Positions 31,746 to 51,095 of a DNA stretch of 64,000 nt are shown here, piece after piece. The notes beneath the pieces were generated by a model. That model was not told the origin of the DNA and did not search any database. It was given only the letters and a program-made list of their open reading frames with translations. A program made the position numbers and the translations under genes. The DNA lies in IMG/VR virus record IMGVR_UViG_3300045988_054045; one strand, written 5' to 3'. Source of the stretch: a virus. Each line of letters opens with the position of its first letter. Within the stretch, counting starts at the first letter, position 1.

Positions 31746-31967
31746 ATGGGTAAGTATATAGACTTGTGTACAGTAATTGATGTGGAGCCTGAAGTATCTC
31801 AGGTTCTAGGTCTTATTGAAGATGAAGACCTCTTAAGTGAGTTCTGGCAGAGAATGGATGAAGATTTCTTTAGAGTCTTTGTTGAAGATTACTGTAAGGA
31901 TAGTGATATTCGTATCATAAAGAAGATAATTGATGAGGTGTGTCAAGAAGAATCTGAAGAGGATTGA
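31746..31967 (+). CDS. small acidic hypothetical protein
   Basis: Start moved to ATG 31746, just after the polymerase stop. Confidence 0.4.
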   Translation: MGKYIDLCTVIDVEPEVSQVLGLIEDEDLLSEFWQRMDEDFFRVFVEDYCKDSDIRIIKKIIDEVCQEESEED

Positions 31968-32494
31968 TGCACACTGAGATAGAAAGAAAATTCATAGTTA
32001 CTGACAGTACTTTTAAACAGAGTGCTGTCAGAATTATGGATATTCGTCAGGGATATGTAGGAACTTCTAGCAATGGAGAAGCTAGAGTATCTATAAGAGA
32101 TGAGAAAGCATGGGTTATCATAAAGTCCAACGGATGTTTAGCAAGATTGGAGTATGAAATTCCAATTCCTAAAAAGGATGCAGAAGAATTACTTTCATTC
32201 ACTTGCGACAGAGTAATCCATAAAACTCGTTATATTATTCCGTGTGAGGATAGTATGCTTAAATGGGAAGTTGATGAGTTTCATGGTGAGGATGAAGGAT
32301 TAATCATTGCTGAGATAGAGTTACCACGCAAGGATATGCCATTTGAAAAACCTCAATGGCTTGGTAAAGAAGTAACACAAGATACTACTTATTATAACTC
32401 TACACTCTCTAAAACGTCTTGGAAAGCTATTCAGAAGTCTCGTGCTGAAGCTAAAGCTTGGGATGATTGGAGGGACTCATTAGTTAAGAAATGA
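31967..32494 (+). CDS. CYTH-domain protein (triphosphate tunnel metalloenzyme)
   Basis: N-terminal EIERKFIV (ExExK signature). Start ATG 31967 (TGATG overlap). Confidence 0.7.
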
Positions 32495-34542: not shown

Positions 34543-35220
34543 ATGTACCTAAACATTAAGATAAAGGAAGATTTCAGAACCTTGAAGAAGGATACTGAAT
34601 ATAAGTTTGACTTTACTAATCAAGATAGGTATCTGATAGTTGGTCCGAATGGTTGTGGTAAGTCTACACTTATTAATATCATACGTAGCTTTCAGTGCGA
34701 CAATGCTAGCGACAGCCGTCAGGATAAACTTGGATATGCAGGGATTAGTGGTATGAAAGATAAGGCAGAAATTGACACTGACTTTGAGAAGTTTTACTTT
34801 ATTAGTTCTGAATTTGATGACCCATTATCATTAGACAACATGGCAACAGCAGAAGCAGCTATTACAAATGGTGGATTCTATTGGAAACGTAAGTCTAATG
34901 GTGAACGTCAGTTACAGAATCTAGGTAAGTGGGTTCAAGAGAACCAAGATAACTGGAATGAGAAGTGCCTATTGATTCTTGACGAAGCTGATAAGGGCTT
35001 CGATTTAAGGTATCAAGTAGGATTACACAATATGCTTATTAACATTCCAGCTAAGAATAATGTGAAATTTCTAGTTGTATCTCACACTCTAATTCCGATA
35101 TTGTTAGAGGACAAAGTTTATGCCTTCCAATATAGAAGGATACTCAGTCCGTCTACATATATATTTGTAGAAACTGGTTACGATATAAAAATTGATAAAG
35201 ATGAAAGAACAGAAGTTTGA
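34543..35220 (+). CDS. minimal ABC/SMC-type ATPase (225 aa)
   Basis: Walker A GPNGCGKSTL, signature-like SNGERQ, Walker B LLILDEADKGFD, H-loop VVSHT. Confidence 0.55.
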   Translation: MYLNIKIKEDFRTLKKDTEYKFDFTNQDRYLIVGPNGCGKSTLINIIRSFQCDNASDSRQDKLGYAGISGMKDKAEIDTDFEKFYFISSEFDDPLSLDNMATAEAAITNGGFYWKRKSNGERQLQNLGKWVQENQDNWNEKCLLILDEADKGFDLRYQVGLHNMLINIPAKNNVKFLVVSHTLIPILLEDKVYAFQYRRILSPSTYIFVETGYDIKIDKDERTEV

Positions 35221-35845
35221 ATTTAATCCTGAAAAGACTTTCTTCACGTCCGATACACATTTTGGTCATGCTAACATAATTAGATTATGTAATAGACCAT
35301 TTAAAGATGTAGAGGAGATGAATGAAAAGTTGATTGAGAACTGGAATAAAGTAGTTCCAGAGGACGGTACAGTCTTCCATTTAGGAGATTTTGCCTTCGG
35401 TGGTAGTGCACTATGGAATAGCGTTATCCCTCGTCTAAACGGACAAATCTACTTGATTATTGGTAATCACGATAGGAAGAATCTAAGACAAGGTTATATG
35501 GATAAATTTGCGGCTGTAATACCTCAAATGCAAATTCAGATAGAGAAAAGAAGTATCTATTTGAACCATTATCCATTCTTGTGCTATGGTGGCTCTTATC
35601 GTAATGAAGCTGATGCTGTATGGCAGTTGTTTGGTCATGTTCATTCTGGACCCACTAGTTCTGGTTTGGATTGTGATAGGTTGTGTAATCTATTCCCATA
35701 TCAATATGATGTTGGCGTAGATAACAATAACTACACTCCAATCTCTTGGGAAGAGGTGAAGAAAAAGATTCAAAACCAAATAGATAATGGAGTGGAGAAA
35801 TCTGTCAAGGAACATACAATTCCCGACGAAATATACAAACTATAA
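35201..35845 (+). CDS. metallophosphoesterase
   Basis: SDTHFGH, LGDF, GNHD, GHVH. Start moved to ATG 35201. Confidence 0.7.
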   Translation: MKEQKFEFNPEKTFFTSDTHFGHANIIRLCNRPFKDVEEMNEKLIENWNKVVPEDGTVFHLGDFAFGGSALWNSVIPRLNGQIYLIIGNHDRKNLRQGYMDKFAAVIPQMQIQIEKRSIYLNHYPFLCYGGSYRNEADAVWQLFGHVHSGPTSSGLDCDRLCNLFPYQYDVGVDNNNYTPISWEEVKKKIQNQIDNGVEKSVKEHTIPDEIYKL

Positions 35846-36063
35846 TGACTAAATTGACTTTAGAAATCGACGGAATTATCTGTTCTATGGAGATACCTTA
35901 TAATGATGTAAGTGCTACTGAACTAATTAAGGGATTTGGTTCCTTAATGATTGGTCAGACATTTCTTGCTTGCACTGTTAAAGAGGCTCTAGAAGAGGTA
36001 GCCGAAGATTATGAAGACGAACTAAGAGTAGGTTATGAATCCCAACACACTGAGGAAGATTAA
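35845..36063 (+). CDS. small acidic hypothetical protein
   Basis: TAATG overlap; 72 aa. Confidence 0.4.
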   Translation: MTKLTLEIDGIICSMEIPYNDVSATELIKGFGSLMIGQTFLACTVKEALEEVAEDYEDELRVGYESQHTEED

Positions 36064-36358
36064 AAGGTTAGAAGCTGGTGAATCATTTATCACCAGTGAG
36101 CCTGGGAACTCTATGCTTCCGTTATATAAGAGTAATGAGAAGCATAGGGTTACTCCAATAAAATGGGAAGATTGTAAGGTGGGCGATGTAGTATTCTGTA
36201 AGGTTAGAGGTTCATGTGTAACTCACAAAGTCTATGCAGTAGATAGTGAGAAAGGTTGTCTAATAGGCAATAATAAAGGACACATGAATGGATGGACTAA
36301 GAATGTGTATGGCAAAGCCCACAAAATTGACCAATCGTTAAAAACTAAGAAGCCTTGA
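36035..36358 (+). CDS. S24/S26-family peptidase-like protein
   Basis: GNSMLP (compare GDSMxP), VGDVVF, THKVYAV; 107 aa. Confidence 0.45.
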   Translation: MNPNTLRKIKRLEAGESFITSEPGNSMLPLYKSNEKHRVTPIKWEDCKVGDVVFCKVRGSCVTHKVYAVDSEKGCLIGNNKGHMNGWTKNVYGKAHKIDQSLKTKKP

Positions 36359-37047
36359 GAATTTGTGTAACGTCCGATTTACATGGCATTCTTCCTAAAA
36401 TAGAAGAGCCGTGTACAGCAGTATTGATATGCGGAGATATTATGCCATTACGTATGCAGAGAAACATTCCTCAGAGTGAGAAATGGTTAAAGACTGAATT
36501 TGCAGAATGGGTTAATAATCTTCCGTGTGAGTCTGTTATTATGGTAGGAGGCAATCATGACTTTGCTTTAGCTAATATGTACAGACAACCTTTAAAGATT
36601 AACTCAATCTTAACGCAGCCAACTAATGGTAAACTTGAGTTGTTAGATAATGAAGAGACTTGTATTATTGATGAGAGTGGAAAATGCTATTTAGTATGGG
36701 GAACTCCATATTGTAAAATCTTTGGCAATTGGGCTTATATGTATGAGCCTGAAACTCTAATCAAGGCATATAAATCTATGCCAGCAGAGTGTGATATTGT
36801 TATATCTCACGATGCTCCTAAATTATGCGGTCTTGGTGTTATCCACCAGAGATTTAACCAAGAGGATGCTGGTAATCCTTGGCTGGCTGACGAGATGCTT
36901 CGTAAACATCCTAAATATACATTCTGTGGACATATCCATAGTGGGGAACATAATCTGCAAACCCTTGATGATATGAAGATGGCTAATGTGTCTTTAGTAG
37001 ATGAAACGTATACAGAAACGTTTAAACCTTTATATCTCGATGTCTAA
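36355..37047 (+). CDS. metallophosphoesterase (second copy, different subfamily)
   Basis: TSDLHG, CGDI, GGNHD, SHDAP, GHIH. TTG start is forced because motif I lies at residues 7-11. Confidence 0.65.
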   Translation: MRICVTSDLHGILPKIEEPCTAVLICGDIMPLRMQRNIPQSEKWLKTEFAEWVNNLPCESVIMVGGNHDFALANMYRQPLKINSILTQPTNGKLELLDNEETCIIDESGKCYLVWGTPYCKIFGNWAYMYEPETLIKAYKSMPAECDIVISHDAPKLCGLGVIHQRFNQEDAGNPWLADEMLRKHPKYTFCGHIHSGEHNLQTLDDMKMANVSLVDETYTETFKPLYLDV

Positions 37048-37222
37048 AGTTGCAACAAGGGGAGGTATAGGCTTCTTCCCTCTACTGTTTATAGTACTAC
37101 TAGCCTGTAAGTTATTTGGAGCTAATATAACTTGGTTCTGGGTTATTGCTCCTTTATGGATGCCTCTTGTAGTAGTGCTAGTAATTGCTGTATTATTACT
37201 TATTATAAGTTCAATAAGATGA
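37040..37222 (+). CDS. small membrane protein (60 aa)
   Basis: ATG 37040 overlaps the upstream stop. Two hydrophobic helices. Confidence 0.4.
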   Translation: MSKVATRGGIGFFPLLFIVLLACKLFGANITWFWVIAPLWMPLVVVLVIAVLLLIISSIR

Positions 37223-37800
37223 AAGAAAAAGTAACCCTAGTAGTTGTGGACTTCCAGTATGACTTCTGTCTGCTGGGAGCACCACTCTATGTTCCAGGGT
37301 CTGATAAGGCTCTGTGGAACATCTCTCATTTAATTGAGAATAACAAAGTTGGTCGGGTGATATTTACTGCCGATTGGCATCCATCTAACCATTGTTCCTT
37401 TAAGAAGAATGGTGGTCAGTGGAATGAGCATTGTGTGCAGTTCTCTAAGGGTGCGGCTATACATGATTTATTACTGTATGGTTGTATTGGTGCTGGAATA
37501 CCTTATGAAGTAATTACTAAAGGTACTCTATCACTTTCAGAAGAATATGGAATAAAGGTTGCTCCAGCTAATGCTAAAGTCCAGTACCATACTATCTATA
37601 GTTCATCGGTAGGAGTTGACGTTCAGCCAGATGAGCAAGTAGTGATTTGTGGTTTGGCAGGAGACTTCTGCGTACTTGAAACTTTGAAGAACCTAGCCCC
37701 TGTTAACCCTATGATATTCCTTGATGGTGTAGCTTCCCTAGATGGAGGAGTTAAACTCAATGAATATGTAGAAAGTAATGGAGTTAGGGTATGGTCATAA
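37219..37800 (+). CDS. pncA: nicotinamidase (isochorismatase family)
   Basis: VVVDFQYDF, DWHPSNHCSF, EHCVQ, VITKG, GLAGDFCV (Asp/Lys/Cys triad and metal site). Start at ATG 37219 (ATGA overlap), not 37132. Confidence 0.8.
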   Translation: MKEKVTLVVVDFQYDFCLLGAPLYVPGSDKALWNISHLIENNKVGRVIFTADWHPSNHCSFKKNGGQWNEHCVQFSKGAAIHDLLLYGCIGAGIPYEVITKGTLSLSEEYGIKVAPANAKVQYHTIYSSSVGVDVQPDEQVVICGLAGDFCVLETLKNLAPVNPMIFLDGVASLDGGVKLNEYVESNGVRVWS

Positions 37801-38027
37801 AAATTATCATACTAGTACTAGTTCACTTATCAATATCAGCAATAGCTATTCTTATGGGTAAGTACTTACCTAACATGGTACACAAGGAGAATGAACGTGA
37901 AGTATTCTCATTCATTTATTGTTGTCTTCTTCCCATAATGAATATAATTGTTGTTTGCATTGGTTTATGTGAGTTAGTTGATGTAGTAATGCATAAAATT
38001 ATAAAATATATAAAGAGATGGTTGTAA
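37791..38027 (+). CDS. small membrane protein (78 aa, two TM helices)
   Basis: Hydrophobic segments IIILVLVHLSISAIAILMG and LLPIMNIIVVCIGL. Confidence 0.4.
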   Translation: MVIKIIILVLVHLSISAIAILMGKYLPNMVHKENEREVFSFIYCCLLPIMNIIVVCIGLCELVDVVMHKIIKYIKRWL

Positions 38028-39184
38028 AATCTATTTTAGATACGGACTTGTATAAATTTACAACTTCGTATGCCTATATGAAACTATTCCCTTATTCTAT
38101 TGGAACATTTGAGTTCTTTGATAGGGATAGTACAGAATATTCCGATGAATTTCTGGAAAACTTGAGAATTGAGTTATGTAACTTAGGTTCTCTTAAACTT
38201 ACTAAGGATGAACAGGAGTTTATGGCTAATAACTGTAGGTTCATTCCTCCCATGTATTGGGAATGGTTATCTGGGACAAGACTTGATGCTGGAAAAGTAA
38301 GAGTGTGGTTGGATGAAGAAAAGCATCTGCACATCACAGTTACAGATTATCTGTATAGAGTAACTCTGTATGAAGTACCTATCCTGGCTATCGTGTCTCA
38401 GTTAAGAAACCATATGCTAAACCACTGTATTGATATGCAGCTAGTTATTGGAAAGTTAGCTCCTAAGATTAGTCTGTCTAATAAGAGTGGTATTCCATTC
38501 TCTGAGTTCGGCACTCGTAGAAGATATTCATTCAATGTTCAGGATGAAGTTATTAAATACATCAAAGAACATTCTATTTACTGCACAGGAACATCAAATT
38601 GTTACTTTGCAATGAAATATGATATGAAGATGATGGGAACTCATCCACATGAATGGTTTATGTTTCATGGTGCTATGTATGGCTATAAGCAAGCTAACTA
38701 CATGGCTTTGGAGAACTGGACTAATGTATATGATGGTGATTTGGGTATTGCATTAACTGATACCTATACTACAGATGTATTCTTTAAGAATCTATCTCGT
38801 AAGCAGGCTAAGTTATTTGATGGTATTAGGCAGGATAGTGGAGATGAATTCCAATTTGTAATGAAGGCTATTGCCAGATACAAAGAACTTGGAATTGACC
38901 CATCTACTAAGACTATTATCTTCAGCAATGCACTGACATTCGATAAGGCGGAAGAAATTCAGGAATATTGTAGAGGTAGAATCCGATGTGCGTTCGGTAT
39001 AGGTACTAACCTTACTAATGACACTGGATTTAAACCATCTAATATTGTTATGAAGCTGACTTCTTGTCGTATGAATAAGAACCAACCAGTATTCAACTGT
39101 GTGAAACTATCTGATGATTTAGGGAAACATACTGGTGATACTGAAGAGGTTAAGCACTGTATTCAAACTATTAGTAAGTTTTAA
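38018..39184 (+). CDS. pncB: nicotinate phosphoribosyltransferase
   Basis: Collinear with E. coli PncB as I recall it: ILDTDLYKFT, FGTRRR, GTSN, GTHPHEW, LGIALTD, RQDSGD, FGIGT, IVMKL. Confidence 0.9.
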   Translation: MVVKSILDTDLYKFTTSYAYMKLFPYSIGTFEFFDRDSTEYSDEFLENLRIELCNLGSLKLTKDEQEFMANNCRFIPPMYWEWLSGTRLDAGKVRVWLDEEKHLHITVTDYLYRVTLYEVPILAIVSQLRNHMLNHCIDMQLVIGKLAPKISLSNKSGIPFSEFGTRRRYSFNVQDEVIKYIKEHSIYCTGTSNCYFAMKYDMKMMGTHPHEWFMFHGAMYGYKQANYMALENWTNVYDGDLGIALTDTYTTDVFFKNLSRKQAKLFDGIRQDSGDEFQFVMKAIARYKELGIDPSTKTIIFSNALTFDKAEEIQEYCRGRIRCAFGIGTNLTNDTGFKPSNIVMKLTSCRMNKNQPVFNCVKLSDDLGKHTGDTEEVKHCIQTISKF

Positions 39185-39188
39185 GTAA

Positions 39189-39344
39189 ATGCCAACCTGG
39201 CGATATGCACTAAAATCTAGTATTTCCAAACTTACCCCCAAAGAGCTAAATGCTTATGGGGATAAGGGTTGGGAATTAGTATCTGTGGTATATGTTGAAC
39301 TAGTGGGATTCATATATTACTTTAAAAAAGAATTAAAAGTATGA
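39189..39344 (+). CDS. DUF4177-like mini-protein (51 aa, not in the ORF track)
   Basis: KELNAYGDKGWELVSV core. Its stop overlaps the nadE ATG (ATGA). Confidence 0.45.
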   Translation: MPTWRYALKSSISKLTPKELNAYGDKGWELVSVVYVELVGFIYYFKKELKV

Positions 39345-40285
39345 ACAGATTAAATTATGAAAAAGTTTTCAAAACCCTCGTTGAGGAGACTGGAAATTAT
39401 CTTGTTAATCATAGTCTTCGCGCTATGGTTCTTGGGGTTAGTGGCGGCATTGACTCCACTGTTGTAGCTGCTATTTGTTGTGAGGTAAACAAACAAACTA
39501 ATATTCCTCTAATTGGACGGAGTTTGCCAATTAAGAATAAGAAGGATGAGTTTGATGTATCTAAACTAGTAGGAGAGGCATTCTGTAATAACTTTGATGT
39601 TGCGAATCTGTATGATGAGTATAAATGCTTTCTGAGTGGGTTAGTATGGAGGGAAGAGAGAATTGATTTATTGGATGATACTGAAACCATGCACCCAGAG
39701 AAGTCCAAACAACAAACTCTTATAGCTAATGGTAATATCCAAGCTAGGCTCAGAATGATATATCTCTACAATCTTGCTTCCATTCATAATGGGTTAGTAA
39801 TGTCTACTGATAATCAGACTGAGTATCAGCTAGGATTCTGGACTATTCATGGTGATGTGGGTGACTTTGACCCAATTCAGGACTTGTGGAAGACAGAAGT
39901 TTATGGGCTGGCTGGATATCTATTTCATAAATATGATATGAAGGCTAAAGCTACCAGCCTGTTTTACGGAAAGGAATCTAAAGAATGTAAAGATGCTATA
40001 GCTAAGGCTACAGCTATACATAGGTCTATAGCCTTAACTCCTACCGATGGTCTTGGTATTAGTAATAGTGACTTAGACCAGATTGGTGCAAAGAGCTATA
40101 ACGATGTTGATAGGGTGTTACAAACTTTAGTCTGTCCTGCTTCTCCTGAGAATGACAGAGTGCAAGATGCTTTAACTGTTGAAATAGGTCCAGAGATTAT
40201 AGATAAGATTATCAAAAGACGTCGTAACTCTAGGTTTAAGCGTGAAAAGTCTCCTATCTATATATCTAGGGATAGGTATGAATAA
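39341..40285 (+). CDS. nadE: NH3-dependent NAD+ synthetase
   Basis: PP-loop LGVSGGIDSTV. NadE-like length and layout. Confidence 0.85.
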   Translation: MNRLNYEKVFKTLVEETGNYLVNHSLRAMVLGVSGGIDSTVVAAICCEVNKQTNIPLIGRSLPIKNKKDEFDVSKLVGEAFCNNFDVANLYDEYKCFLSGLVWREERIDLLDDTETMHPEKSKQQTLIANGNIQARLRMIYLYNLASIHNGLVMSTDNQTEYQLGFWTIHGDVGDFDPIQDLWKTEVYGLAGYLFHKYDMKAKATSLFYGKESKECKDAIAKATAIHRSIALTPTDGLGISNSDLDQIGAKSYNDVDRVLQTLVCPASPENDRVQDALTVEIGPEIIDKIIKRRRNSRFKREKSPIYISRDRYE

Positions 40286-40296
40286 AATTGTTTGAA

Positions 40297-40548
40297 ATGA
40301 AGTTATATTATTTATTTTTATTAGTAATGTTCCTATTGATGGGTTGTACTAACTCATCTAACATTAGTGGTCCTAATACTATAGGAACGTCTAAGGTACA
40401 TGGAGATGTGTACAGCTATGTTATTGATGGACATGAATACATAAAGTTAGGTAATGGCTTTGCACATTCTGGTACTTGCAAGAAATGTAAGGCAGATTTG
40501 GAAAGTATTATCCGTAAAGTAGTTAAGGAGGAACGTTCACAATGGTAG
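40297..40548 (+). CDS. small lipoprotein
   Basis: MKLYYLFLLVMFLLMGC: signal peptide plus lipobox Cys. ATG 40297 preferred over TTG 40288. Confidence 0.55.
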   Translation: MKLYYLFLLVMFLLMGCTNSSNISGPNTIGTSKVHGDVYSYVIDGHEYIKLGNGFAHSGTCKKCKADLESIIRKVVKEERSQW

Positions 40549-41102
40549 GGATATTCTTTGGGTCTTTTGACCCTCCGCACATAGGTCATGTTAATGTAGT
40601 CACAGCTGCTCTAAACTCTGGTAAAGTTGATAAAGTAATTGTAGTTCCTGCATATAAGAGTGTATGGAAGAATACTGAAACCAAATGGGAGTATAGGCTT
40701 GCTATGGCTAAGGAAACATTTGACAATATTCCTGGAGTAGTTGTAGATGGTATAGAATACCGCATATCTAATGGTGAGCCTTTACCCACTTATAAGACTA
40801 TAGAAGCATTAAAGGAGATATATGGAGAGTTTACTATTGTTACATCTGCAGAAACCTATAAGGAAATTCCTAGATGGCAGCATGGTGAAGAAATACTAAA
40901 GAATAATAAATTCTTAGTAGTTGATGTGGCTCATTTTGACAGTGAAGATATATCTTCGGATGATGTTGATATTGTATATGCTCCAGATATTACTATATGT
41001 TCTACAGCTATCCGAATGTGGGTTGATAACGGGGAGATTATATTACCATTTGTAACAGATGCAGTTAATTCAATAATCAGAAAACTTGGGCTATATAAAT
41101 GA
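40542..41102 (+). CDS. nadD: nicotinate/nicotinamide mononucleotide adenylyltransferase
   Basis: GIFFGSFDPPHIGH ((H/T)xGH motif) and C-terminal ICSTAIR (ISSTxxR-like). Confidence 0.8.
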   Translation: MVGIFFGSFDPPHIGHVNVVTAALNSGKVDKVIVVPAYKSVWKNTETKWEYRLAMAKETFDNIPGVVVDGIEYRISNGEPLPTYKTIEALKEIYGEFTIVTSAETYKEIPRWQHGEEILKNNKFLVVDVAHFDSEDISSDDVDIVYAPDITICSTAIRMWVDNGEIILPFVTDAVNSIIRKLGLYK

Positions 41103-41617
41103 ACCAAATCTATGTTTCAGGTCCTTGGTCTTTTTCCTCTGGAGTACTTCAAGTAGTTAAGAGTATAAAGACTAAATCAAAAGATAAGGTAGTTTATAGT
41201 GAGAAGGGAGAAGATTATCAATTCTCTAAACTTGAACAATCTAACTATGTCGTATTCGTATTAGATGGATTTGCATGGCAACAAAAACTTGAGAATATAT
41301 CAAGAGGTATGCTCTCAGAATTACTGTGGTGCATAAATCATAGGATTCCCATGTTTTTAGCTTATAAATCTGCTAATGGATTAGGCATATATGGAACGGA
41401 AATAGATGACAATTTAAACTTTAAGGGAGTTGCTGGGACTGCGGATAACTTCTACCAGATTATAAGTGGACAATTTGGAAACATTGTTGCTGATGATTCT
41501 GTGTTCCTAAAAGGATTTAGAATATCAGACGTAGGAAACGTATATCTAAAAGGAGAAATGCTCGCAGACCCATTGGACTATCTTAATGTTGAACAACCTA
41601 AGAGTTATTTTTATTAA
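41099..41617 (+). CDS. nucleoside 2-deoxyribosyltransferase/DUF4406-like Rossmannoid protein
   Basis: IYVSGP N-terminus; VVFVLDGF...SRGMLSELLWCINHRIPMFL. Confidence 0.4.
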   Translation: MNQIYVSGPWSFSSGVLQVVKSIKTKSKDKVVYSEKGEDYQFSKLEQSNYVVFVLDGFAWQQKLENISRGMLSELLWCINHRIPMFLAYKSANGLGIYGTEIDDNLNFKGVAGTADNFYQIISGQFGNIVADDSVFLKGFRISDVGNVYLKGEMLADPLDYLNVEQPKSYFY

Positions 41618-41618
41618 C

Positions 41619-42155
41619 ATGAAGAACTTTCCAATATTAGACGAAAATGGCAAGGAATGGTGGATAAGCCGTTCTATTGCAGTAACTGGATGTATATTTA
41701 CATTTCTGAATGGTAAGTGGTGTGTATTAGCCAATAAAAGAGGTGAGGGCACACCTGACTTTCAGGGAATGTGGAATATGCCCTGTGGTTATTTGGACTT
41801 CAATGAAACTACGGCTGAAGCAGTAATAAGAGAAGTCTATGAAGAAACTGGAGTTAAAGTCAATCCTGATTATCTTCATTTCTGGTGTTTCAATGATTCT
41901 CCAACTCAAAACAGGCAGAATGTATCCTTTAGGTATTATGCCTTAGTCGATGCACAGCCTGGAAATATTAGTGTCGGAACTGGTAATGATAGAGGTGGAG
42001 AAGAGGATGAAGTAGAAGCTATAGGATGGATTCCAGTAGATACCGTTGATAATTATAAGTGGGCATTTGGTCACGATGAAATTATCAAGGACTTTGTGGA
42101 ATGGATGCACCTGGAAGATGACTATTTTGATGACATTGACCAGGACTCAGAATGA
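41619..42155 (+). CDS. Nudix hydrolase
   Basis: Nudix box GYLDFNETTAEAVIREVYEETGV. Start at ATG 41619. Confidence 0.8.
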   Translation: MKNFPILDENGKEWWISRSIAVTGCIFTFLNGKWCVLANKRGEGTPDFQGMWNMPCGYLDFNETTAEAVIREVYEETGVKVNPDYLHFWCFNDSPTQNRQNVSFRYYALVDAQPGNISVGTGNDRGGEEDEVEAIGWIPVDTVDNYKWAFGHDEIIKDFVEWMHLEDDYFDDIDQDSE

Positions 42156-42529
42156 TTTACTTTATAAGTGGACATAGAGACCTAACATGGGAGGAGTTTG
42201 CCAAATGGTACGCTCCTGCCATTAGTAGGACACTCAGTACGGATAATGGAGCAATGTTTGTAGTAGCTGAATGTGACGGTGCTGACAGAATGGCTCAGGA
42301 CTATTTGCTAGCCTGTGGTGTTGCTCCAAAGAGTATCAATGTATACCATATGCTAAAAGCACCTAGGTATTTAGCTAATCACAATATACCCACTATAGGT
42401 GGCTATACATCCGATTTGCAGAGGGATGAAGCTATGACTAGGAACTCTGACTATGACATTGCTTTTATCCGTAAGGGTAAAGAAACCTCTGGAACTGCTC
42501 AAAACATTTTAAGGAGATGGACAAAGTAA
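42152..42529 (+). CDS. SLOG-superfamily protein (DUF2493/YpsA-like)
   Basis: MIYFISGHRD, ECDGADRMAQDYL, RDEAMTRNSDYDIAFI, SGTAQN. Confidence 0.5.
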   Translation: MIYFISGHRDLTWEEFAKWYAPAISRTLSTDNGAMFVVAECDGADRMAQDYLLACGVAPKSINVYHMLKAPRYLANHNIPTIGGYTSDLQRDEAMTRNSDYDIAFIRKGKETSGTAQNILRRWTK

Positions 42530-42678
42530 AAGAAACTGAAAAGGAGAAGTTTGAGAGATTAAGACTACACTTTACTAGTTTGTTTTTACAGCATCCCAAG
42601 ATGTTAGAGGTTCTTACTTATAAGGATATTGTAGTTAAGGCTAAGGAGTTTACTAAAGAATATCTAAAGCATGAATAA
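42517..42678 (+). CDS. small hypothetical protein (53 aa, not in the ORF track)
   Basis: Overlaps both neighbours by a few nt and fills the 42530-42670 gap. Confidence 0.35.
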   Translation: MDKVKETEKEKFERLRLHFTSLFLQHPKMLEVLTYKDIVVKAKEFTKEYLKHE

Positions 42679-43162
42679 GTTTATATTCCTAGATATAGAC
42701 GGGGTTATGAATAGTAACCTTTTCTATTCTGAAAGAACCCAAGATAAGAGATATGATGAATGGATTAAAGACCATCCTCAGCATATAGCTTGGGGTGCTT
42801 GCAACATTGACCCAAGAGCAGTAAAGAGGTTAAATAGAATAACGGATGCTACTAAGGCTAAGATTGTAGTTTCCTCTACTTGGAGAAGTGATAGTAACCT
42901 CCAAGAGGTATTTACTTTAGTTGGCATTAAAGAGCCTATATATGATGTTACACCTTATATGAGGAGTAGACATAGAGGTTCCGAAATACAGGAGTGGTTG
43001 GATAAGCAAACTGAGCCTTATAGGTATATTATTCTTGACGATGATAGTGATATGTTAGACTGTCAGTTACCTTACTTTATCCAAACTGACTGGTTGAAAT
43101 GGGGTTTAAGTGATGAAGATGTCGAACAAGCAATACATATTCTAAATGATACAGCCGCTTAG
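42671..43162 (+). CDS. HAD-superfamily phosphatase (HAD_SAK-like)
   Basis: FIFLDIDGVMNS, VSSTWR, ILDDDSD. Confidence 0.6.
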   Translation: MNKFIFLDIDGVMNSNLFYSERTQDKRYDEWIKDHPQHIAWGACNIDPRAVKRLNRITDATKAKIVVSSTWRSDSNLQEVFTLVGIKEPIYDVTPYMRSRHRGSEIQEWLDKQTEPYRYIILDDDSDMLDCQLPYFIQTDWLKWGLSDEDVEQAIHILNDTAA

Positions 43163-43325
43163 ACATATCTATAATGACCCAACCCTAGACAGAGAGTTAC
43201 TTCTTCGTAAGTTAACCTCTCTAAGGATTAAGGGTGTAATTAGTATTGAAGAATACGAGTATTTAAAACATTTAATAAGAAAGGAGAACGAAAATGCTCA
43301 GAGAGCAAATGGATGCACTTATTAA
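43146..43325 (+). CDS. possible small protein (59 aa, not in the ORF track)
   Basis: Open frame bridging the 43163-43293 gap, but it overlaps the YqeY start by 32 nt. Confidence 0.25.
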   Translation: MIQPLRHIYNDPTLDRELLLRKLTSLRIKGVISIEEYEYLKHLIRKENENAQRANGCTY

Positions 43326-43770
43326 GCAATCAATGCTTGATAAGAACACAAAGAGAACTGATGTACTAAGAGCTATTAAGAATGAGTTCTTAGTGTTTCA
43401 AACAGCTAAAAATGCTAAGCCTTTAGATGATGCAGCTGAGTTTACTATTCTTCGTAAGATGGTTAAGCAAAGACTTGATAGTAGAGACCAATATATTGCA
43501 GCAGGAAGGAAAGACCTAGCCGATAATGAATCTAAAGAGATTCTAGTGCTGGAGTCTTTCCTTCCGCGAGAAGCCACGATTGAGGACATCAATAAGGCAA
43601 TCTATGAAATCTGTACGGAGAAGGGATGGTACATACCGCAGAGTGAAGACACAATCTGCCCAGAAATCCCGAAAAAGTCTATGGGAGAAGCTATTAAGGT
43701 GGTCAAGGGAAAGCTTGATAATGTAGATGGTAAATTGCTTGCTGATACTATTAAATCATTCCTTGTATGA
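43294..43770 (+). CDS. GatB/YqeY-domain protein
   Basis: LIKQSMLDKN..RTDVLRAIKNEF ... RKMVKQRLDSRDQYIAAGRKDLADNESKEILVLESFLP. Confidence 0.7.
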   Translation: MLREQMDALIKQSMLDKNTKRTDVLRAIKNEFLVFQTAKNAKPLDDAAEFTILRKMVKQRLDSRDQYIAAGRKDLADNESKEILVLESFLPREATIEDINKAIYEICTEKGWYIPQSEDTICPEIPKKSMGEAIKVVKGKLDNVDGKLLADTIKSFLV

Positions 43771-44003
43771 CACTAAAGGAAATAGTAACTCTTCCGAGCG
43801 AAGCAAAGTTTGTTCATGCAATAGCTGGAACTCTATATTATAGAATCATAACAGATGATGTAATTGTAGAGTTTCCTATTGACATGAATGATAAGGATGA
43901 TGTTGGTACTACCACATTTGTAGCTTCCTATAAGCCTATTACATTAATGAGGTATATTAGGAAGGCTATTGATAATGAGAGTATAATAATCATCCACAGA
44001 TAA
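43767..44003 (+). CDS. hypothetical protein
   Basis: ATGA overlap; 78 aa. Confidence 0.4.
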   Translation: MTLKEIVTLPSEAKFVHAIAGTLYYRIITDDVIVEFPIDMNDKDDVGTTTFVASYKPITLMRYIRKAIDNESIIIIHR

Positions 44004-44080
44004 GATGTAAGTAGTTGTACTATGTGATATTTGACTTTTAAATCAAACTCTAATCTATTTTCATGAAATTCATAAATTGA

Positions 44081-44112
44081 TTTGGTGATGCAGCTTATAA
44101 TGCTTATATTTG
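44081..44112 (+). promoter_or_regulatory. Bacteroidota-type promoter (-33 TTTG, -7 TATATTTG)
   Basis: TTTG at 44081-44084 and TATATTTG at 44105-44112, with a 20-nt spacer. Lies 40 nt upstream of ATG 44152. Confidence 0.5.
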
Positions 44113-44151
44113 CAGAAATTAAGTGGTTAAACTGTTTAAACGTATTAATTT

Positions 44152-44466
44152 ATGAAAATCGAAGAGAAATTTAGAAAATTCCAGCAAGGTGGTGCTGCAC
44201 CTCAACCTGGTGCTGAACCAGCAGGCGGAGCACCAGCAGAAGGAGCACCTGCTGAGGGTGGTGCGCCTGCTGAAGGGGGACAAGACCCAATGGCACAGAT
44301 TCTACAAGTAGCTGCACAAGCAGTTCAGACTCAGAATTGTGAGGCTGCAATGGCTGTATGTCAAGCTCTAATGCAAATCGCTCAAGGTGGTGCTGCTCAA
44401 GAACAAGCTCCTCAAGAGGAACCAACTTTTGCAAGAAAAGGTGCTAGACTAGTAAGAGTAAGATAA
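44152..44466 (+). CDS. Ala/Gly/Pro/Gln-rich 104-aa protein, unknown function
   Basis: Has its own promoter and terminator. N-terminus MKIEEKFRKFQQGG. GAPAEG repeats. Basic tail ARKGARLVRVR. Confidence 0.6.
   Translation: MKIEEKFRKFQQGGAAPQPGAEPAGGAPAEGAPAEGGAPAEGGQDPMAQILQVAAQAVQTQNCEAAMAVCQALMQIAQGGAAQEQAPQEEPTFARKGARLVRVR
44227..44274 (+). repeat. in-frame tandem repeat (15/15/18 nt) encoding GAPAE-GAPAE-GGAPAE
   Basis: ggagcaccagcagaa / ggagcacctgctgag / ggtggtgcgcctgctgaa. Confidence 0.6.
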
Positions 44467-44485
44467 TTAGTCAACAAGGTAAGAA

Positions 44486-44516
44486 GGGGCGTATATTAAT
44501 TATATGCTCCTTTTTT
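44486..44516 (+). terminator. intrinsic terminator
   Basis: 10-bp stem GGGGCGTATA / TATATGCTCC (two G-U pairs), 5-nt loop, T6 run at 44511-44516. Confidence 0.7.
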
Positions 44517-44530
44517 ATTATACATAGTAT

Positions 44531-47500
44531 ATGTCACAAGTAATAAGAAAGTACAACTCTGGAGGTCAAACTGACAAACCTAAGCTTCTGAGTATAAAAG
44601 GGCTAGGCGACTTTAACCAAGATGACCTAATAAAGAGAGGTTATAGAGATGTGGATGAATATACCTCATCTAAGGGGTTAAAGAATGCTGCTGCAGCTGA
44701 TTTTAGGAATGCTGTGCAATATATGCTTGAGGGAATGAACAATGGCACTATAACTATGGATGCTATGGGCAACTTTCAAGATGCAACGGGTCAAAAATCA
44801 AGTACTGGTGAGTTAGATAGAAAGAAATTCTTGGGTATAAAAACAGGGGTTAAGAATACTGAGAATAATGCCTATGGATTAGCTGCTGATTATCTATACA
44901 ACATCATTAAAGGAGCACCGCAGTATAAGCAGCCTGAGGTAAAGGCTGAGAAATTTAACACCAATGACTATCTAACTAAGGAGATTTCAAAAAGATGGTA
45001 TGGAGGAAACAATATAGATTTTGGCAACTGGTTTAAAAACAGGTCAGAGAAAGACCGTAATGCACTCATAGCTGACATCTTTAATAGTGCGGATTATAAT
45101 AAATTGTATCAAGAGCACGATTGGACCGATACTGGTATCAATAGCGTAGAAGACTTAATGGCTCGTGGAAGGGCATTTGGCTCTGCTATTTCTAATAATA
45201 AACTAGACAATGACGATTACAACACATTTGCCACACTAGGTGGTAGTGATTTAGATAAGTTCTTGAGGGAAGCCTCAGTAGAGACTGAGTCTACTCCAGA
45301 ACAGAGTAAAATGAAGGCGTGGGAAGCTGAGGCAGAAGCAGCTGGAGCAACCACTCCTGAAGCTAAGGCTGCATTCATTCAAAGAAAGCAGCGAGAAGAA
45401 GCTGACAGAAATGAAGCTATTATTAAGGCTAACCAACAAGAAATATACGAGAGGGAGAGAAATAAATTCTTCAACGATTATGCTACTCGGAATCCATTTA
45501 AGGAATCCATTCAGTCAGGATATGTCCCTAGCTCTGTATCATATAAACCAGAAGACTATGATAAACCAATAAAGGACTTCTATAATAATAATATTGACCA
45601 ATACTTAAACGATAACCTATCTAGAGATTGGTTTAGAGCTGGTAATACCCAACATATTGCCAATCACATGGATTATCTAATTAATCACTTGAAGATGAGT
45701 CTTCCAGACGCAGGTGATGGGTTTGTGGCAATTCCTTCAACGTTTGATTATAATAACTACACTACAATGGTATATAATCCAACTACTAGACAATATAGAG
45801 AATCATCTATGCTAGTGAATGATGCCTTAAGACGTCTTGCAAATGCTCATTATGATAGTACTCGTACATCTAAGAAGGAAAATGGTGGTGTACTCTATAT
45901 GCAGTTTGGAGGAACGTATAGTGCTGGGGCTAATTACAGTAGCTACCAACAACAGAGAGCACAAGAGAAGAAAACCAAAGAAGAGGAAACCGTTAGACAG
46001 AAAGCTGAATCTAAAGGAAGGACTACTGAGGAGCAGAAGGTAGCTGATAGAAAGCCTGGAAGCATCACTAGTGGTGACTGGACTGGGGCTGATTATACTA
46101 GACTAGCATCTATAGTTGCTGATATTGGTTCTTTGGGTGCAGCATATGTGCCTGTCTATGGTACTGCTGCTTCAGCAGTGTTGGGTGTAGGTAGTTCTCT
46201 AGCCAATTATGGAGCGGATGTGTCTGAGAATGGATTTAAATGGGGTGACTTAGGTAGCTTGGCTATGAACTTAGGCTTAGATACAGTGGGTCTGATTCCA
46301 GGATTGGGAACAGCCGCGAAGGGTAGTAAGATGCTTAAAACAGCTGTTAAGTATATACCTAAAACATTGTCCCTATTAGCTGCATATAACTACACGGGTC
46401 CAGCCATAGAATCCATGAAAAAGGCTATGACACCAGGTGCTGACTTAACAGTGGATGACTGGAGAAATATTGCAGAAGGTTTTAAGATGGTGTTACAAGG
46501 AGGTAAGGGTGTCAAGAGAACTGTTCAAGCTCGTAATCTCAAAAAAGACCTAGCAACAGGTAATAAAGTGCTTACTACGCTAGGTGGTAAAGAAGTATCT
46601 GTAACCCCAGCTCAGTTATCTGAGATACGTTCTCATAGAAAATTGGAAGACCAAGAAGCAGCACTGCAACTGTTACTGAAAGATGATAATTTGAGACTAG
46701 CTGGGGACTTAAATAAAAGGTGGTTTAACCCTTCTCGCTATCTTCCTGATTCCAATATCAGAAATGAGTATGATTTTAACAAGAAAGTGAAGAAGAGAAC
46801 CTCTCAAGGATGGATAGAAGTACCTAGAGTCTATAGTAACTCTGATAAATACATCGCTGCTACTATGCAGCAGAACGTTGCTAAGATTCCAGGTGTTGAT
46901 GAGCTATCAATGAAGTATAATGATTGGAAGTACAGGGTAGAAAAGAGTCCAAAAAGTAATAAGGGTAAAAAGCCAAGCTCACAAAAGGAAGCTCCTAAGG
47001 AAATGCTAGCTTTACCAGCCCCAGGTCAAACACATAGAGTATTTCACATGGGTTCTGGACAACCTAAGGTACCTCAAGATGTAACAAATCCATCTAACCT
47101 TAGTAAACCAGGAACATATCAGGATAGAGCTGTCCATGTAGGAGGTACTCCAGTTGAGTCTCCAAATGCTAATGCAGTAAGGACAGTTAGGACTATAAAT
47201 TCTATTTTAGAGCCATTCGTTCCTAAGACTACAAACTTGCCAGCTGTCATCCCTGCATCTAGAAATGCTAACAAGGTAGTTGCTTCACAAACTATACAAC
47301 CTTCACAGAGGTTAGACCAGTTTATTGAAGGGCAAATACCAGGAGGAAGGCAGTTTGGTAAACAAAGAGCTAAAACTGAGAGGGAATATAGAGATGTATT
47401 CCATCCTGTAGCAGAACGTGAGTATAATGCAGTTTGGGATGAAGCAGTTAGAAATAGGAAGGACTTTGGATATGAAGAAGTCTTCCCTAAGAGAAGTCCT

Positions 47501-49249
47501 TATGCTCCTCCTACTCCTACAGAGGTATATGTAGTACCAGAAGGTGCTATGAAAGACCCTAATGCAAGGTATCTTTGGGAACTTATAAACAAGAAACCTA
47601 ATACTAACCATACTAAGAGGGCAGACTTACCTCATAAGAAGTCAAATAAAAAGAAGAAAACTTCTAAAGATGATAGAGTTACTAAGAAAGCAGAGGGCGG
47701 ATTAATTCAATTCTTACAAGGTGGTGATACAGTAGGAAGAATCAAGGCTAAAGATATGTCTAACTGGAATAGAGCATCTGCTCTGGCTAACTATGATTGG
47801 GTAGCTGATATTGATAGGTGGAAAGCTTCACATACTGGACCAGATGATTGGCGTTCTTCTTATATGCTCTCTTTTAATGGCGGAGAAGATATATATGACC
47901 AATTAACTGATAAGACTGGAGATTACTTCGGTGGTAAGTATAATTACTCAGTACAAGACCCATTAGCTAAACAAAGACAAATTACCTTTAGAGGAACTAA
48001 TCAAGGCTTTGATGACCTAATTAGAAATGGTATCGTAGGCTATGGTACTACAGAAGGTACAACTGGATTTGACGTGTATGCTGGTGATAGAACTGGTAAC
48101 AGAACGCTTGCCCGTGGAATGACTCCCGAAGACGTTGCTCGCTTTAATAAGCAATTAGCAACCAGAGGAATGGAGTTATATGACAAGGGTAATGGAACCT
48201 ATCGACTAAGAGCACTTCAGGAACCGACTCAACACCTAGACGAGGTTGTAGTTACAGCTCCTAAAGTAGCAGCTAGTGATACAACTAACCCATCTGGTAT
48301 AAAGCGTGTAACAAGTACTCCTAAGAAGAAGCTTAAACTTAATGTAGCTCCAGAGGAAGTATTAGCTTTAGGTAGAATGGTTGGTGGTTTGGCAGCTAAC
48401 AACAGGGCAGCTAAAGTATATAAGGAAGGACTAAAGCCAACCTTATTAGATACATTTGAGAATACTGTTCCACTTCAAGGTAATTTCCAAGCTAAGACCA
48501 ATGCAGAGCAACAAGCAGGTAATTTAGAATCTGTAGCTGCAAGACCTAGAACTTCTGATGCTTCACTACAGTTAGCTGGAGAGTTAGAGGCTAGTGATAG
48601 AGCAGGACAAGCTAGATTCCAAGGTGGTCTTCAAGATGCTGAAATGTTCTATAAAACTAGGATGTTAGGACAACAAGAATCTGATGCTGCTAAGGCAAGA
48701 AGAGTAGAGGTTGCTAACAGGAATAGAGCTTCAATGAATGCTATAGATGCAGCTAAGAAGCAGATTGATGCTGGAAGAATAACTGCTAATTATCAGCAAG
48801 TTATTGCTCCTTATTTAGCTGGTGTAGAGAATAGATTCAGACAAGCTAGAGGTATGAAGAATCAGTTAGCTTTAGAGTCTTATCTAAACAGAGTTGGTTC
48901 AGAATACGATACTGAATTAGCTAAGATTGGAGAGACTTACAAGAATGACCCAGTAGGGGCACAAAGAGAAATATCTAAATTACGCTCCAAGTATCAGTCA
49001 GATGCACTGAAAGAAAGAACATCACTGATAGATACTCCCTGGTTAGTTAGATTTAGTGGAAAGGGTTCTAAGCTGTCCTATGCTGAAAAAGCTATGCTTC
49101 AAAGGGCTAAGGATTTCAATAAGAGACTATCAGATGATAATAAACAATTTCATAAAGATATAATGGAATCTAAGAGGGAGCATAACAAGATGATTGCAAA
49201 TATGTCTGCTCTCACTGCTGCACTTATAAAGAAAGGAATGCAACTATGA
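44531..49249 (+). CDS. giant protein 1 (1572 aa), candidate virion/ejected protein
   Basis: Uninterrupted ORF. Gly-rich hydrophobic segment (about nt 46080-46410), internal KKxxGGxxxxxxGG motifs, C-terminal coiled-coil-like Ala/Gln/Arg-rich region. Confidence 0.8.
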   Translation: MSQVIRKYNSGGQTDKPKLLSIKGLGDFNQDDLIKRGYRDVDEYTSSKGLKNAAAADFRNAVQYMLEGMNNGTITMDAMGNFQDATGQKSSTGELDRKKFLGIKTGVKNTENNAYGLAADYLYNIIKGAPQYKQPEVKAEKFNTNDYLTKEISKRWYGGNNIDFGNWFKNRSEKDRNALIADIFNSADYNKLYQEHDWTDTGINSVEDLMARGRAFGSAISNNKLDNDDYNTFATLGGSDLDKFLREASVETESTPEQSKMKAWEAEAEAAGATTPEAKAAFIQRKQREEADRNEAIIKANQQEIYERERNKFFNDYATRNPFKESIQSGYVPSSVSYKPEDYDKPIKDFYNNNIDQYLNDNLSRDWFRAGNTQHIANHMDYLINHLKMSLPDAGDGFVAIPSTFDYNNYTTMVYNPTTRQYRESSMLVNDALRRLANAHYDSTRTSKKENGGVLYMQFGGTYSAGANYSSYQQQRAQEKKTKEEETVRQKAESKGRTTEEQKVADRKPGSITSGDWTGADYTRLASIVADIGSLGAAYVPVYGTAASAVLGVGSSLANYGADVSENGFKWGDLGSLAMNLGLDTVGLIPGLGTAAKGSKMLKTAVKYIPKTLSLLAAYNYTGPAIESMKKAMTPGADLTVDDWRNIAEGFKMVLQGGKGVKRTVQARNLKKDLATGNKVLTTLGGKEVSVTPAQLSEIRSHRKLEDQEAALQLLLKDDNLRLAGDLNKRWFNPSRYLPDSNIRNEYDFNKKVKKRTSQGWIEVPRVYSNSDKYIAATMQQNVAKIPGVDELSMKYNDWKYRVEKSPKSNKGKKPSSQKEAPKEMLALPAPGQTHRVFHMGSGQPKVPQDVTNPSNLSKPGTYQDRAVHVGGTPVESPNANAVRTVRTINSILEPFVPKTTNLPAVIPASRNANKVVASQTIQPSQRLDQFIEGQIPGGRQFGKQRAKTEREYRDVFHPVAEREYNAVWDEAVRNRKDFGYEEVFPKRSPYAPPTPTEVYVVPEGAMKDPNARYLWELINKKPNTNHTKRADLPHKKSNKKKKTSKDDRVTKKAEGGLIQFLQGGDTVGRIKAKDMSNWNRASALANYDWVADIDRWKASHTGPDDWRSSYMLSFNGGEDIYDQLTDKTGDYFGGKYNYSVQDPLAKQRQITFRGTNQGFDDLIRNGIVGYGTTEGTTGFDVYAGDRTGNRTLARGMTPEDVARFNKQLATRGMELYDKGNGTYRLRALQEPTQHLDEVVVTAPKVAASDTTNPSGIKRVTSTPKKKLKLNVAPEEVLALGRMVGGLAANNRAAKVYKEGLKPTLLDTFENTVPLQGNFQAKTNAEQQAGNLESVAARPRTSDASLQLAGELEASDRAGQARFQGGLQDAEMFYKTRMLGQQESDAAKARRVEVANRNRASMNAIDAAKKQIDAGRITANYQQVIAPYLAGVENRFRQARGMKNQLALESYLNRVGSEYDTELAKIGETYKNDPVGAQREISKLRSKYQSDALKERTSLIDTPWLVRFSGKGSKLSYAEKAMLQRAKDFNKRLSDDNKQFHKDIMESKREHNKMIANMSALTAALIKKGMQL

Positions 49250-51084: not shown

Positions 51085-51095
51085 AATCTAGTAAT

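Follow-up and report, generated by a model that had tools for sequence, protein, structure and literature searches.

The stretch of DNA analysed here, called the window throughout, comprises 64,000 nucleotides of the IMG/VR virus record IMGVR_UViG_3300045988_054045. It encodes, within a block of about 4 kb, four enzymes of nicotinamide adenine dinucleotide (NAD+) salvage: a nicotinamidase (PncA), a nicotinate phosphoribosyltransferase (PncB), an NAD synthetase (NadE) and a nicotinate/nicotinamide mononucleotide adenylyltransferase (NadD). A preliminary description, made from the sequence alone, had taken these four open reading frames (ORFs) for a complete route from nicotinamide to nicotinate, nicotinate mononucleotide (NaMN), nicotinate adenine dinucleotide (NaAD) and NAD+. 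All four were found on the + strand where it had placed them, each with the motifs it had cited (Table 1).

Table 1. Genes of the NAD+ salvage locus and its neighbours, with the number of related viral loci (out of 79) in which each gene was detected by tblastn.
Feature	Coordinates	Strand	Evidence	Loci (of 79)
Calcineurin-like metallophosphoesterase, conserved upstream neighbour	36355..37047	+	Pfam Metallophos E 1e-10	69
73-aa predicted membrane ORF, variable accessory	37001..37222	+		28
PncA-like nicotinamidase, 193 aa	37219..37800	+	Pfam Isochorismatase, NCBIfam PRK11609, structures 3r2j/1ilw	75
78-aa predicted membrane ORF between PncA and PncB, variable accessory	37791..38027	+		10
PncB nicotinate phosphoribosyltransferase, 388 aa, GTHPHEW (H211)	38018..39184	+	PRK05321, TIGR01514, 2im5	
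51-aa ORF, weak DUF4177/Sp36 similarity, variable accessory	39189..39344	+		8
NadE, single-domain NH3-type NAD synthetase, 314 aa, SGGIDS	39341..40285	+	TIGR00552, 3p52, 3fiu	77
86-aa ORF, lipoprotein-like signal (LMGC), variable accessory	40288..40548	+		31
NadD-like nicotinate/nicotinamide mononucleotide adenylyltransferase, 186 aa, GSFDPPHIGH and STAIR	40542..41102	+	TIGR00482, 2h29, 1kam	70
Putative TIR/deoxyribosyltransferase-like (TDS) protein of Rossmannoid class, 172 aa	41099..41617	+	Pfam, AF2, Foldseek	53
Nudix hydrolase, ADP-ribose pyrophosphatase/NrtR/NadM-Nudix type, intact Nudix box	41619..42155	+	Pfam NUDIX E 7.5e-16	72
Putative minimal SLOG-fold protein (YspA/LOG/DprA-like), 125 aa	42152..42529	+	AF2, Foldseek	63

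Profile searches recovered the expected family for each of the four proteins. The PncA ORF scored 36.8 bits against Pfam Isochorismatase (cut-off 27) and 55 bits (E 9e-15) against the NCBIfam nicotinamidase model PRK11609, below the equivalog cut-off of 174. It aligned with the nicotinamidases of Leishmania (3r2j, E 4.5e-18) and P. horikoshii (1ilw/1im5), and in these alignments the catalytic triad is occupied by D11, K101 and C151 and the metal site by D52, H54 and H71, in agreement with the Asp/Lys/Cys triad and metal site that had been read from the sequence. The PncB ORF passed two curated cut-offs (PRK05321, 429.5 bits against a cut-off of 379; TIGR01514, 408.7 bits against 269.55), carries both Pfam domains of a full-length nicotinate phosphoribosyltransferase (NAPRTase), namely the N-terminal domain and the catalytic barrel, and is collinear over the full length, GTHPHEW motif included, with the P. 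gingivalis NAPRTase 2im5 (E 1e-121). The NadE ORF exceeded the cut-off of TIGR00552 (121.9 bits; cut-off 63.65), and its PP-loop SGGIDS aligned with that of 3p52 (E 1e-21), the C. jejuni NAD synthetase, and with that of 3fiu (E 2.6e-17), the NadE of Francisella tularensis, a nicotinamide mononucleotide (NMN) synthetase. The phage protein has no glutaminase domain and is therefore of the NH3-type. The NadD-like protein, at 92.2 bits, stayed under the TIGR00482 cut-off of 112.45 and passed that of Pfam CTP_transf_like (55.7 bits; cut-off 21). It aligned end to end, including HxGH and the C-terminal STAIR, with the NadD proteins of S. aureus and B. subtilis (2h29 and 1kam), both of which prefer NaMN.

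At the level of sequence, these searches confirmed the families and active sites of PncA, PncB, an NH3-type NadE and NadD. The misaligned or missing catalytic residues that would have refuted the preliminary description were not seen, and its route from nicotinamide to NAD+ is matched by four enzymes with intact sites in a phage setting.

To assess the distribution of the locus, relatives were taken from a PncB-anchored scan of IMG/VR, which yielded 79 viral contigs, mostly of 87-190 kb with a few of 327-410 kb; gene presence was scored by tblastn. All four enzymes are intact in 60 of these 79 loci, always in the order PncA, PncB, NadE, NadD and with a median span of 4.06 kb, so that the co-occurrence survey suggested earlier came out in favour of a genuine gene set. 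Together with the E-values above, this synteny excludes chance as the source of the four-enzyme set. Among unique phage orthologues, identity to the window falls as low as ~29% for PncA and ~34% for NadD. Nevertheless, the six PncA residues D11, K101, C151, D52, H54 and H71 show no or almost no variation across 48 unique orthologues. The NadE motifs, PP-loop included, hold in 55 such sequences, NadD keeps G.FDP.H.GH and ST.iR in 50, and phage orthologues of PncB likewise retain GT-x-x-HEW. Because the catalytic residues hold despite this deep divergence, there is strong evidence that the four enzymes are under purifying selection and would be functional. PncB is mostly 73-79% identical to the window across loci L001-L079, against ~30-46% for PncA and ~33-47% for NadD; this higher conservation would point to very strong constraint or else to recurrent swapping of pncB between phages and hosts.

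The conserved block does not end with NadD. The preliminary description had delimited the unit at 37219-41102; its four genes stand, but the block continues to 42529 with three more genes, coding for a TIR/DrHyd-like protein, a Nudix hydrolase of the ADP-ribose pyrophosphatase (ADPRase) type and a SLOG protein. The Nudix hydrolase is the most readily classified. Its start is probably M12 of the ORF at 41586-42155, where the orthologues begin and which fits the junction, and its Nudix box is conserved across orthologues. The best matches of the family profile, over ~145 residues, were the structures 2fml (1.7e-10), 3gz8/3gz5 (~1e-9) and the Francisella NadM-Nudix protein 2qjt (1.7e-8); 3gz8/3gz5 is the ADP-ribose-binding NAD regulator NrtR of Shewanella. 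These matches assign the protein to the ADP-ribose pyrophosphatase clade linked with NAD metabolism. It also matched the PADLOC candidate family PDC-S07 (E 2e-10).

The 172-aa protein encoded directly after NadD is a putative TIR/DrHyd-like protein of the TDS class, a weak assignment. Its AlphaFold2 (AF2) model has a Rossmann-like core with a predicted local distance difference test score (pLDDT) of ~86. Foldseek gave no match at E <= 1e-3; the matches of top probability were nucleoside 2'-deoxyribosyltransferase, the TIR domains of SPARTA, SARM1 and RRS1, and DNPH1, and those to deoxyribosyltransferases were equal to or better than those to TIR domains. Pfam detected TIR_2 (E 1.4e-5) in 2 of 10 family members and Nuc_deoxyrib_tr at E 0.053, and viral proteins annotated as nucleoside 2-deoxyribosyltransferase were matched at E ~1e-3. 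No PADLOC model, those for TIR included, and no PHROGs family matched the protein. Glu74, invariant across the family, lies at the position of the catalytic Glu of TIR and deoxyribosyltransferase enzymes. A variable linker predicted to be disordered (residues 127-172, pLDDT <50) is followed by an invariant C-terminal (S/N)YFY. The family was found on phage-sized contigs only.

The 125-aa protein was modelled by AF2 with a pLDDT of 94.6, and its top Foldseek matches were all SLOG proteins (LOG, ShosA, DprA, TM1055 and ThsA-SLOG; TMq 0.50-0.66, E 0.03-0.64). Pfam YAcAr was weakly detected (E 0.002) in 2 of 11 family members and PHROG phrog_289 at E 5e-7, and no PADLOC model matched. Searching the PDB sequences with the family profiles of the 125-aa and 172-aa proteins returned nothing meaningful.

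The genes of the locus are closely packed. The four enzyme genes belong to a far longer co-directional string, gaps between genes are <=4 nt throughout 36355-44003, and ATGA overlaps occur at four junctions, between the 73-aa ORF and PncA, the 51-aa ORF and NadE, NadD and the next gene, and Nudix and the next gene. The tight ATGA coupling noticed earlier is thus borne out. The tiny membrane, lipoprotein and DUF4177-like genes said to be interleaved with the enzymes do exist, but they are variable inserts outside the conserved core: each is kept in a minority of the loci (Table 1), and in most relatives PncA directly adjoins PncB, and PncB adjoins NadE. The similarity of the 51-aa ORF to DUF4177/Sp36 was under the cut-off in both Pfam (E 2e-4) and NCBIfam (E 2.6e-5). 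We considered whether the small membrane ORFs could be transporters of niacin or nicotinamide riboside and rejected the idea, as they are only 73 and 78 aa long and few relatives keep them. Between 34000 and 45000, sigma-70-like promoter matches numbered 23, fewer than the 41.6 +/- 5.2 of shuffled sequence, and the same scan found no + strand terminator inside the module; it models sigma-70 only, Bacteroides and crAss promoters being outside its coverage. Over the whole 64 kb, GC skew is uniformly positive and all genes lie on one strand.

Just one intergenic gap of the region is sizeable, the 148 nt after position 44003. It is succeeded by a low-complexity ORF of 104 aa (44152-44466), rich in Ala, Gly, Pro and Glu, and then by giant ORFs of 1572, 612 and 2690 aa, which have no PHROG match. 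The gap at 44004 and the giant ORFs (regions 44004-44531 and 44531-59168) probably mark a switch to a virion or giant-protein module.

Its family A DNA polymerase and replication module mark the window as a probable crAss-like (Crassvirales-related) gut phage. PolA shares 54-61% identity with its counterparts in the uncultured phage cr111_1, IAS virus and Bacteroides phage crAss001. Also encoded in the window are a primase, DnaB-like and Dda-like helicases, an RNA ligase and an ATP-dependent DNA ligase, as are the nucleotide-metabolism genes for an anaerobic ribonucleotide reductase (NrdD), ThyX, uracil-DNA glycosylase (UDG) and dUTPase. Capsid and terminase genes are absent from the 64 kb, and no tRNA genes were found in them. 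The host is probably Bacteroides or another member of the Bacteroidales.

Close relatives are scarce among named phages. A megablast search of 36000-44000 against GenBank phages gave two short matches, to unannotated human faecal phage records, and no annotated relative. With tblastn, PncB was found in 13 GenBank phage records and PncA in 8. These records stem from faecal phages that lack annotation, from huge phages and from a handful of unrelated ones; neither gene was found in a cultured crAss phage. Among the huge metagenome phages, LR756501/LR756503 (735 kb), LR756500 and LR756511 encode PncB, and in the 735-kb phage a PncA-like gene lies ~7 kb from PncB, so that the PncA-PncB pairing recurs in unrelated very large phages. 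One contig of 410,106 bp is listed twice (L066/L089), as an IMG/VR viral genome and in a GTDB metagenome-assembled genome named 'uncultured Firmicutes bacterium RUG343'; PncA adjoins PncB on it, and it is probably a megaphage binned as a bacterium.

Analysis of the bacterial counterparts gave clues regarding the origin of the cluster. The nearest bacterial PncB proteins found are those of Bacteroides species (65-68% identity), and in a quick neighbour-joining tree, drawn without support values, the main phage PncB clade is monophyletic and sister to Bacteroides. In nine Bacteroides/Bacteroidales loci, no pncA, nadE or nadD was present within 6 kb of pncB. With pncB solitary in the Bacteroides genomes sampled, we conclude that the cluster was assembled in the phage; for the same reason we rejected the capture of a ready-made host operon. 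Every homologue of the phage PncA retrieved from 5.8 billion proteins was on a contig of phage size, and the sole name attached to them is 'nicotinamidase-related amidase' (JGI). According to a study of gut TIR NADases, active enzymes of this type that release nicotinamide are made by B. thetaiotaomicron 7330 and B. xylanisolvens XB1A, and Bacteroides strains with such active enzymes were reported to have no PncA. From gene content, the phage PncA would supply the salvage step missing in PncA-less Bacteroides.

We therefore propose, with a probability of about 0.6, that 37219-42529 is a conserved NAD+ salvage module of an uncultivated crAss-like lineage, rebuilding NAD+ perhaps against NADase defence. 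PncA would convert nicotinamide to nicotinate and NH3, PncB would join nicotinate to phosphoribosyl pyrophosphate (PRPP) to give NaMN, NadD would adenylate NaMN to NaAD, and the NH3-type NadE would amidate NaAD to NAD+, for which the NH3 freed by PncA could serve as co-substrate. The genes would be coupled in translation and expressed together with those of replication and nucleotide metabolism, and the module would maintain or restore NAD+ in the infected cell. A Bacteroides without PncA could not recycle the nicotinamide that its NADases set free; the phage would add PncA together with its own copies of the next three enzymes. The route should be indifferent to the fate of the ADP-ribose (ADPR) half, be it ADPR, cyclic ADPR or ADPR-1''-phosphate, because it needs nicotinamide, PRPP and ATP only. 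The most likely selective reason is a host NAD+-depleting defence (TIR, SIR2 and similar), a view for which the gene content leaves the scales about level.

What the three downstream genes might contribute is more speculative. The Nudix hydrolase may cleave ADP-ribose to yield AMP and ribose-5-phosphate, and the ribose-5-phosphate could reach PncB again through host PRPP synthetase; the TDS-like and SLOG proteins may bind or cleave ADP-ribose-derived nucleotides. On this basis, the seven-gene block could tentatively be seen as a two-armed counter-defence island acting on NAD+ and ADP-ribose and typical of a large crAss-like clade among gut phages, though we consider this doubtful. The first arm, PncA-PncB-NadE-NadD, would return nicotinamide from host TIR/SIR2 NADases to NAD+ whatever the defence does to ADP-ribose. 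The second, formed by the TDS-like, Nudix and SLOG proteins, would dismantle or sequester ADP-ribose-derived signals or toxins and give back ribose-5-phosphate and AMP for PRPP and ATP. If true, the two-armed island would be a fourth, deamidating NAD+ reconstitution pathway, present in some of the most abundant human gut viruses.

Another group of genes in the window could be related to host defence. An RNA-repair set includes an RNA ligase (23481-24866), a tRNA nucleotidyltransferase (25616-26398) and a polynucleotide kinase/phosphatase (26398-27318), and further RNA-repair genes, with the regions 31964-32494, 42671-43162 and 43294-43770, encode a CYTH domain protein, HAD_SAK_2, a 'Swiss Army Knife RNA repair' HAD domain (E 9.5e-29), and a YqeY protein. 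This toolkit suggests a counter to tRNA-cleaving host defences and, as another counter-defence arsenal in the same window, it counts toward the counter-defence reading of the NAD+ module.

Two other defence-related similarities were observed upstream. The metallophosphoesterase next to the module matched, over its full length, the PADLOC candidate defence family PDC-S10 (E 1.5e-31); a second calcineurin-like metallophosphoesterase lies at 35192-35845, and the pair is kept in 69-70 of the 79 loci. We rejected as unsupported the possibility that these are the ADPR-1P phosphatases of the aRES paper, which are Macro-domain proteins. At 34543-35220, a 225-aa ABC/SMC-type ATPase resembles defence ATPases at its N-terminus (mad3, AriA, GajA and PtuA models; best E 1.6e-12) and is much shorter than the defence proteins matched.

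Several points weigh against a counter-defence module. Some relatives carry truncated module genes, indicating that the module is dispensable in places; decay was seen in loci L004, L035, L073 and L076; in L004, for instance, NadD is shortened to 111 aa, and L076 lacks the stretch from NadE to the 125-aa gene. PncA and NadD do not reach the NCBIfam equivalog cut-offs, and the fold assignments of the 172-aa and 125-aa proteins are weak, with no Foldseek match at E <= 1e-3 for either. The substrate preferences of NadE (NaAD or NaMN) and NadD (NaMN or NMN) are not readable from sequence. The four-step route costs one PRPP and, at several steps, ATP; the window ORFs scanned did not include a PRPP synthetase. 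Finally, the module sits among genes of nucleotide metabolism (NrdD, ThyX, dUTPase), a setting that fits a plain metabolic booster equally well.

Such a general auxiliary metabolic module, which would raise NAD(H) for phage replication in a fermenting host after shut-off and have no link to NADases, is the most serious rival, although we consider it unlikely. The long co-directional string shared with NrdD, ThyX, dUTPase, UDG and the replication genes speaks for it. NAD+ synthesis genes are common in large phages and are described as a self-supply system in PMC11662467. PncB, NadD and NadE are moreover already present in the host, so that the phage copies look like a boost to flux. However, a booster leaves PncA unexplained, although this entry step for the NADase product is lacking in the host, is found in 75 of the 79 loci and has an invariant active site. 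The syntenic ADPRase-type Nudix hydrolase and SLOG-fold protein are not accounted for either.

The order of the last two reactions may also differ from the one proposed. In a Francisella-type arrangement, NadE would be an NMN synthetase, turning NaMN into NMN, and the NadD-like protein an NMN adenylyltransferase; this variant is compatible with NAD+ rebuilding against NADases and appears improbable. The second-best solved relative of NadE is 3fiu, the Francisella NMN synthetase, and the NadD-like score lies under the NadD equivalog cut-offs. By contrast, the best NadE match is 3p52, the C. jejuni NAD synthetase, and the best NadD matches, 2h29 and 1kam, prefer NaMN. The position of NadE upstream of NadD in 60 of 60 complete loci seems to favour the variant, but gene order is uninformative on reaction order.

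We regard as very unlikely a third possibility, in which the module is a supply line for NAD+ consumers of the phage itself, such as the TIR/DrHyd-like protein, ADP-ribosyltransferases (ARTs) or NAD-capping, rather than for the host pool. It would fit the translational coupling to NadD of a TDS-class protein with an invariant Glu74, and jumbo phages with NAD+ synthesis genes also encode NAD+-consuming enzymes (PMC11662467). Nevertheless, the TIR-like assignment is weak, the best structural matches being deoxyribosyltransferases, and the 172-aa gene was detected beside NadD in fewer loci than the four enzymes. Both ligases of the window, for DNA and for RNA, have their matches in ATP-dependent ligase families, and scanned window ORFs held no ART, sirtuin or Macro domain. 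Lastly, a function outside NAD metabolism, in which the isochorismatase-fold, adenylyltransferase and PP-loop proteins have some other amide or nucleotide as substrate and might, for example, make a modified nucleotide, is hardly credible: PncA and NadD do score under the curated equivalog models, but PncB passes two curated NAPRTase cut-offs, all nicotinamidase-specific residues are kept, including the WxxHC metal site, and four consecutive steps of one pathway are syntenic across deep divergence.

Depletion of NAD+ ranks among the main themes of bacterial immunity to phages. Experiments have established three pathways by which phages rebuild NAD+, each of them in phages that infect Proteobacteria or Firmicutes. 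If the module works as proposed against NADase defence, crAss-like Bacteroides phages would use a different, deamidating route whose first enzyme fills a metabolic gap of the host. This would provide a concrete link between the TIR NADases of gut Bacteroides and their most abundant phages. Infection by such phages would also bring nicotinamidase activity and nicotinate to the gut; this reaction has already been connected with the NAD+ metabolism of the host.

The four families and their chemistry are those of bacterial PncA-PncB-NadD-NadE salvage; the phage gathers the four genes in a ~4-kb block, whereas pncB is solitary in the sampled Bacteroides. Among phage systems, the NAD+ reconstitution pathways NARP1 (Adps and Namat) and NARP2 (Nampt and Nmnat; bioRxiv 10.1101/2024.02.11.579819) are experimentally established, NARP3 consists of PnuC and NadR (Sci Adv 2026, PMC13464706), and in all three, NAD+ rebuilding by the phage defeats NADase defences. 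NARP1, of which a form extended by a phosphatase is also described, resembles the locus described here as a phage operon that reverses the NADase reaction, and the Nudix hydrolase of the window would also deal with the ADP-ribose half. NARP1 re-joins ADPR-PP to nicotinamide and is blocked by ADPR-1''-phosphate, whereas the route of the window starts from PRPP; no Adps (PRPS-like), Namat or second phosphoribosyltransferase (PRT) domain was found among the window ORFs scanned. NARP3 is likewise a phage cassette restoring NAD+ but, unlike the window, imports nicotinamide riboside and uses NadR. Neither PnuC nor NadR was found in the window, and NadR models gave 24 bits with the NadD-like protein (cut-off 341).

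NARP2 is closest in its inputs, as it also makes NAD+ from nicotinamide, PRPP and ATP. It does so in two steps, whereas the window would use four, via deamidated intermediates, and needs PncA and NadE. The sole PRT of the window scores as an NAPRTase and not as Nampt, and an Nmnat-superfamily enzyme, the NadD-like protein, is present. PncB and Nampt/NadV are members of one type II phosphoribosyltransferase family (Pfam NAPRTase), and NadD shares the HIGH-motif adenylyltransferase superfamily with Nmnat/NadM/NadR. The preliminary description thus overstated the case in calling the enzymes of the window unrelated to those of the known pathways: PncB and NadD are homologous to Nampt and Nmnat, and only PncA and NadE are additions.

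Its view of the route as a third way for phages to rebuild NAD+ is also outdated, given NARP3 (PMC13464706) and the Preiss-Handler clusters of gut jumbo phages published in 2024 (PMC11662467). That study (Microbiome 2024) reports 174 gut jumbo phages, many with Bacteroidota hosts, that encode complete salvage/Preiss-Handler pathways, shows a pncB-nadD-nadE cluster (e.g., in Kuafu_71), mentions phage pncA and proposes counter-defence without a test. The window shares with these phages the clustering of pncB, nadD and nadE, the gut origin and, probably, Bacteroidota hosts. The jumbo phages are >200 kb, whereas the window comes, by its PolA, from a relative of crAss001 and IAS virus whose own relatives are mostly on contigs of 87-190 kb; PncA is integral to the module of the window and first in order; and the block adds the TDS-like, ADPRase-type Nudix and SLOG genes, which are not mentioned there. 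The viral ADPr-processing sets of Iyer et al. 2022 (PMC9503650) resemble the window in placing a stand-alone Nudix hydrolase and a small SLOG protein side by side near NAD+ synthesis genes, within an early or middle phage region. These sets (Nudix, SLOG, Macro and NADAR) were proposed as counter-immunity, and the phage NAD+ synthesis genes named there are NadV, NadM and NadR only, with no PncA, PncB or NadE; unlike those sets, the window has no Macro or NADAR domain among the ORFs scanned. Our literature search found no paper linking crAss-like phages to NAD+ synthesis. The gene content itself is already catalogued in gut jumbo phages; what is new is its presence in a probable crAss-like and apparently non-jumbo lineage, the integral PncA complementing a gap in the host, the evidence that the cluster was assembled in the phage and the conserved extension with Nudix, SLOG and TDS-like genes.

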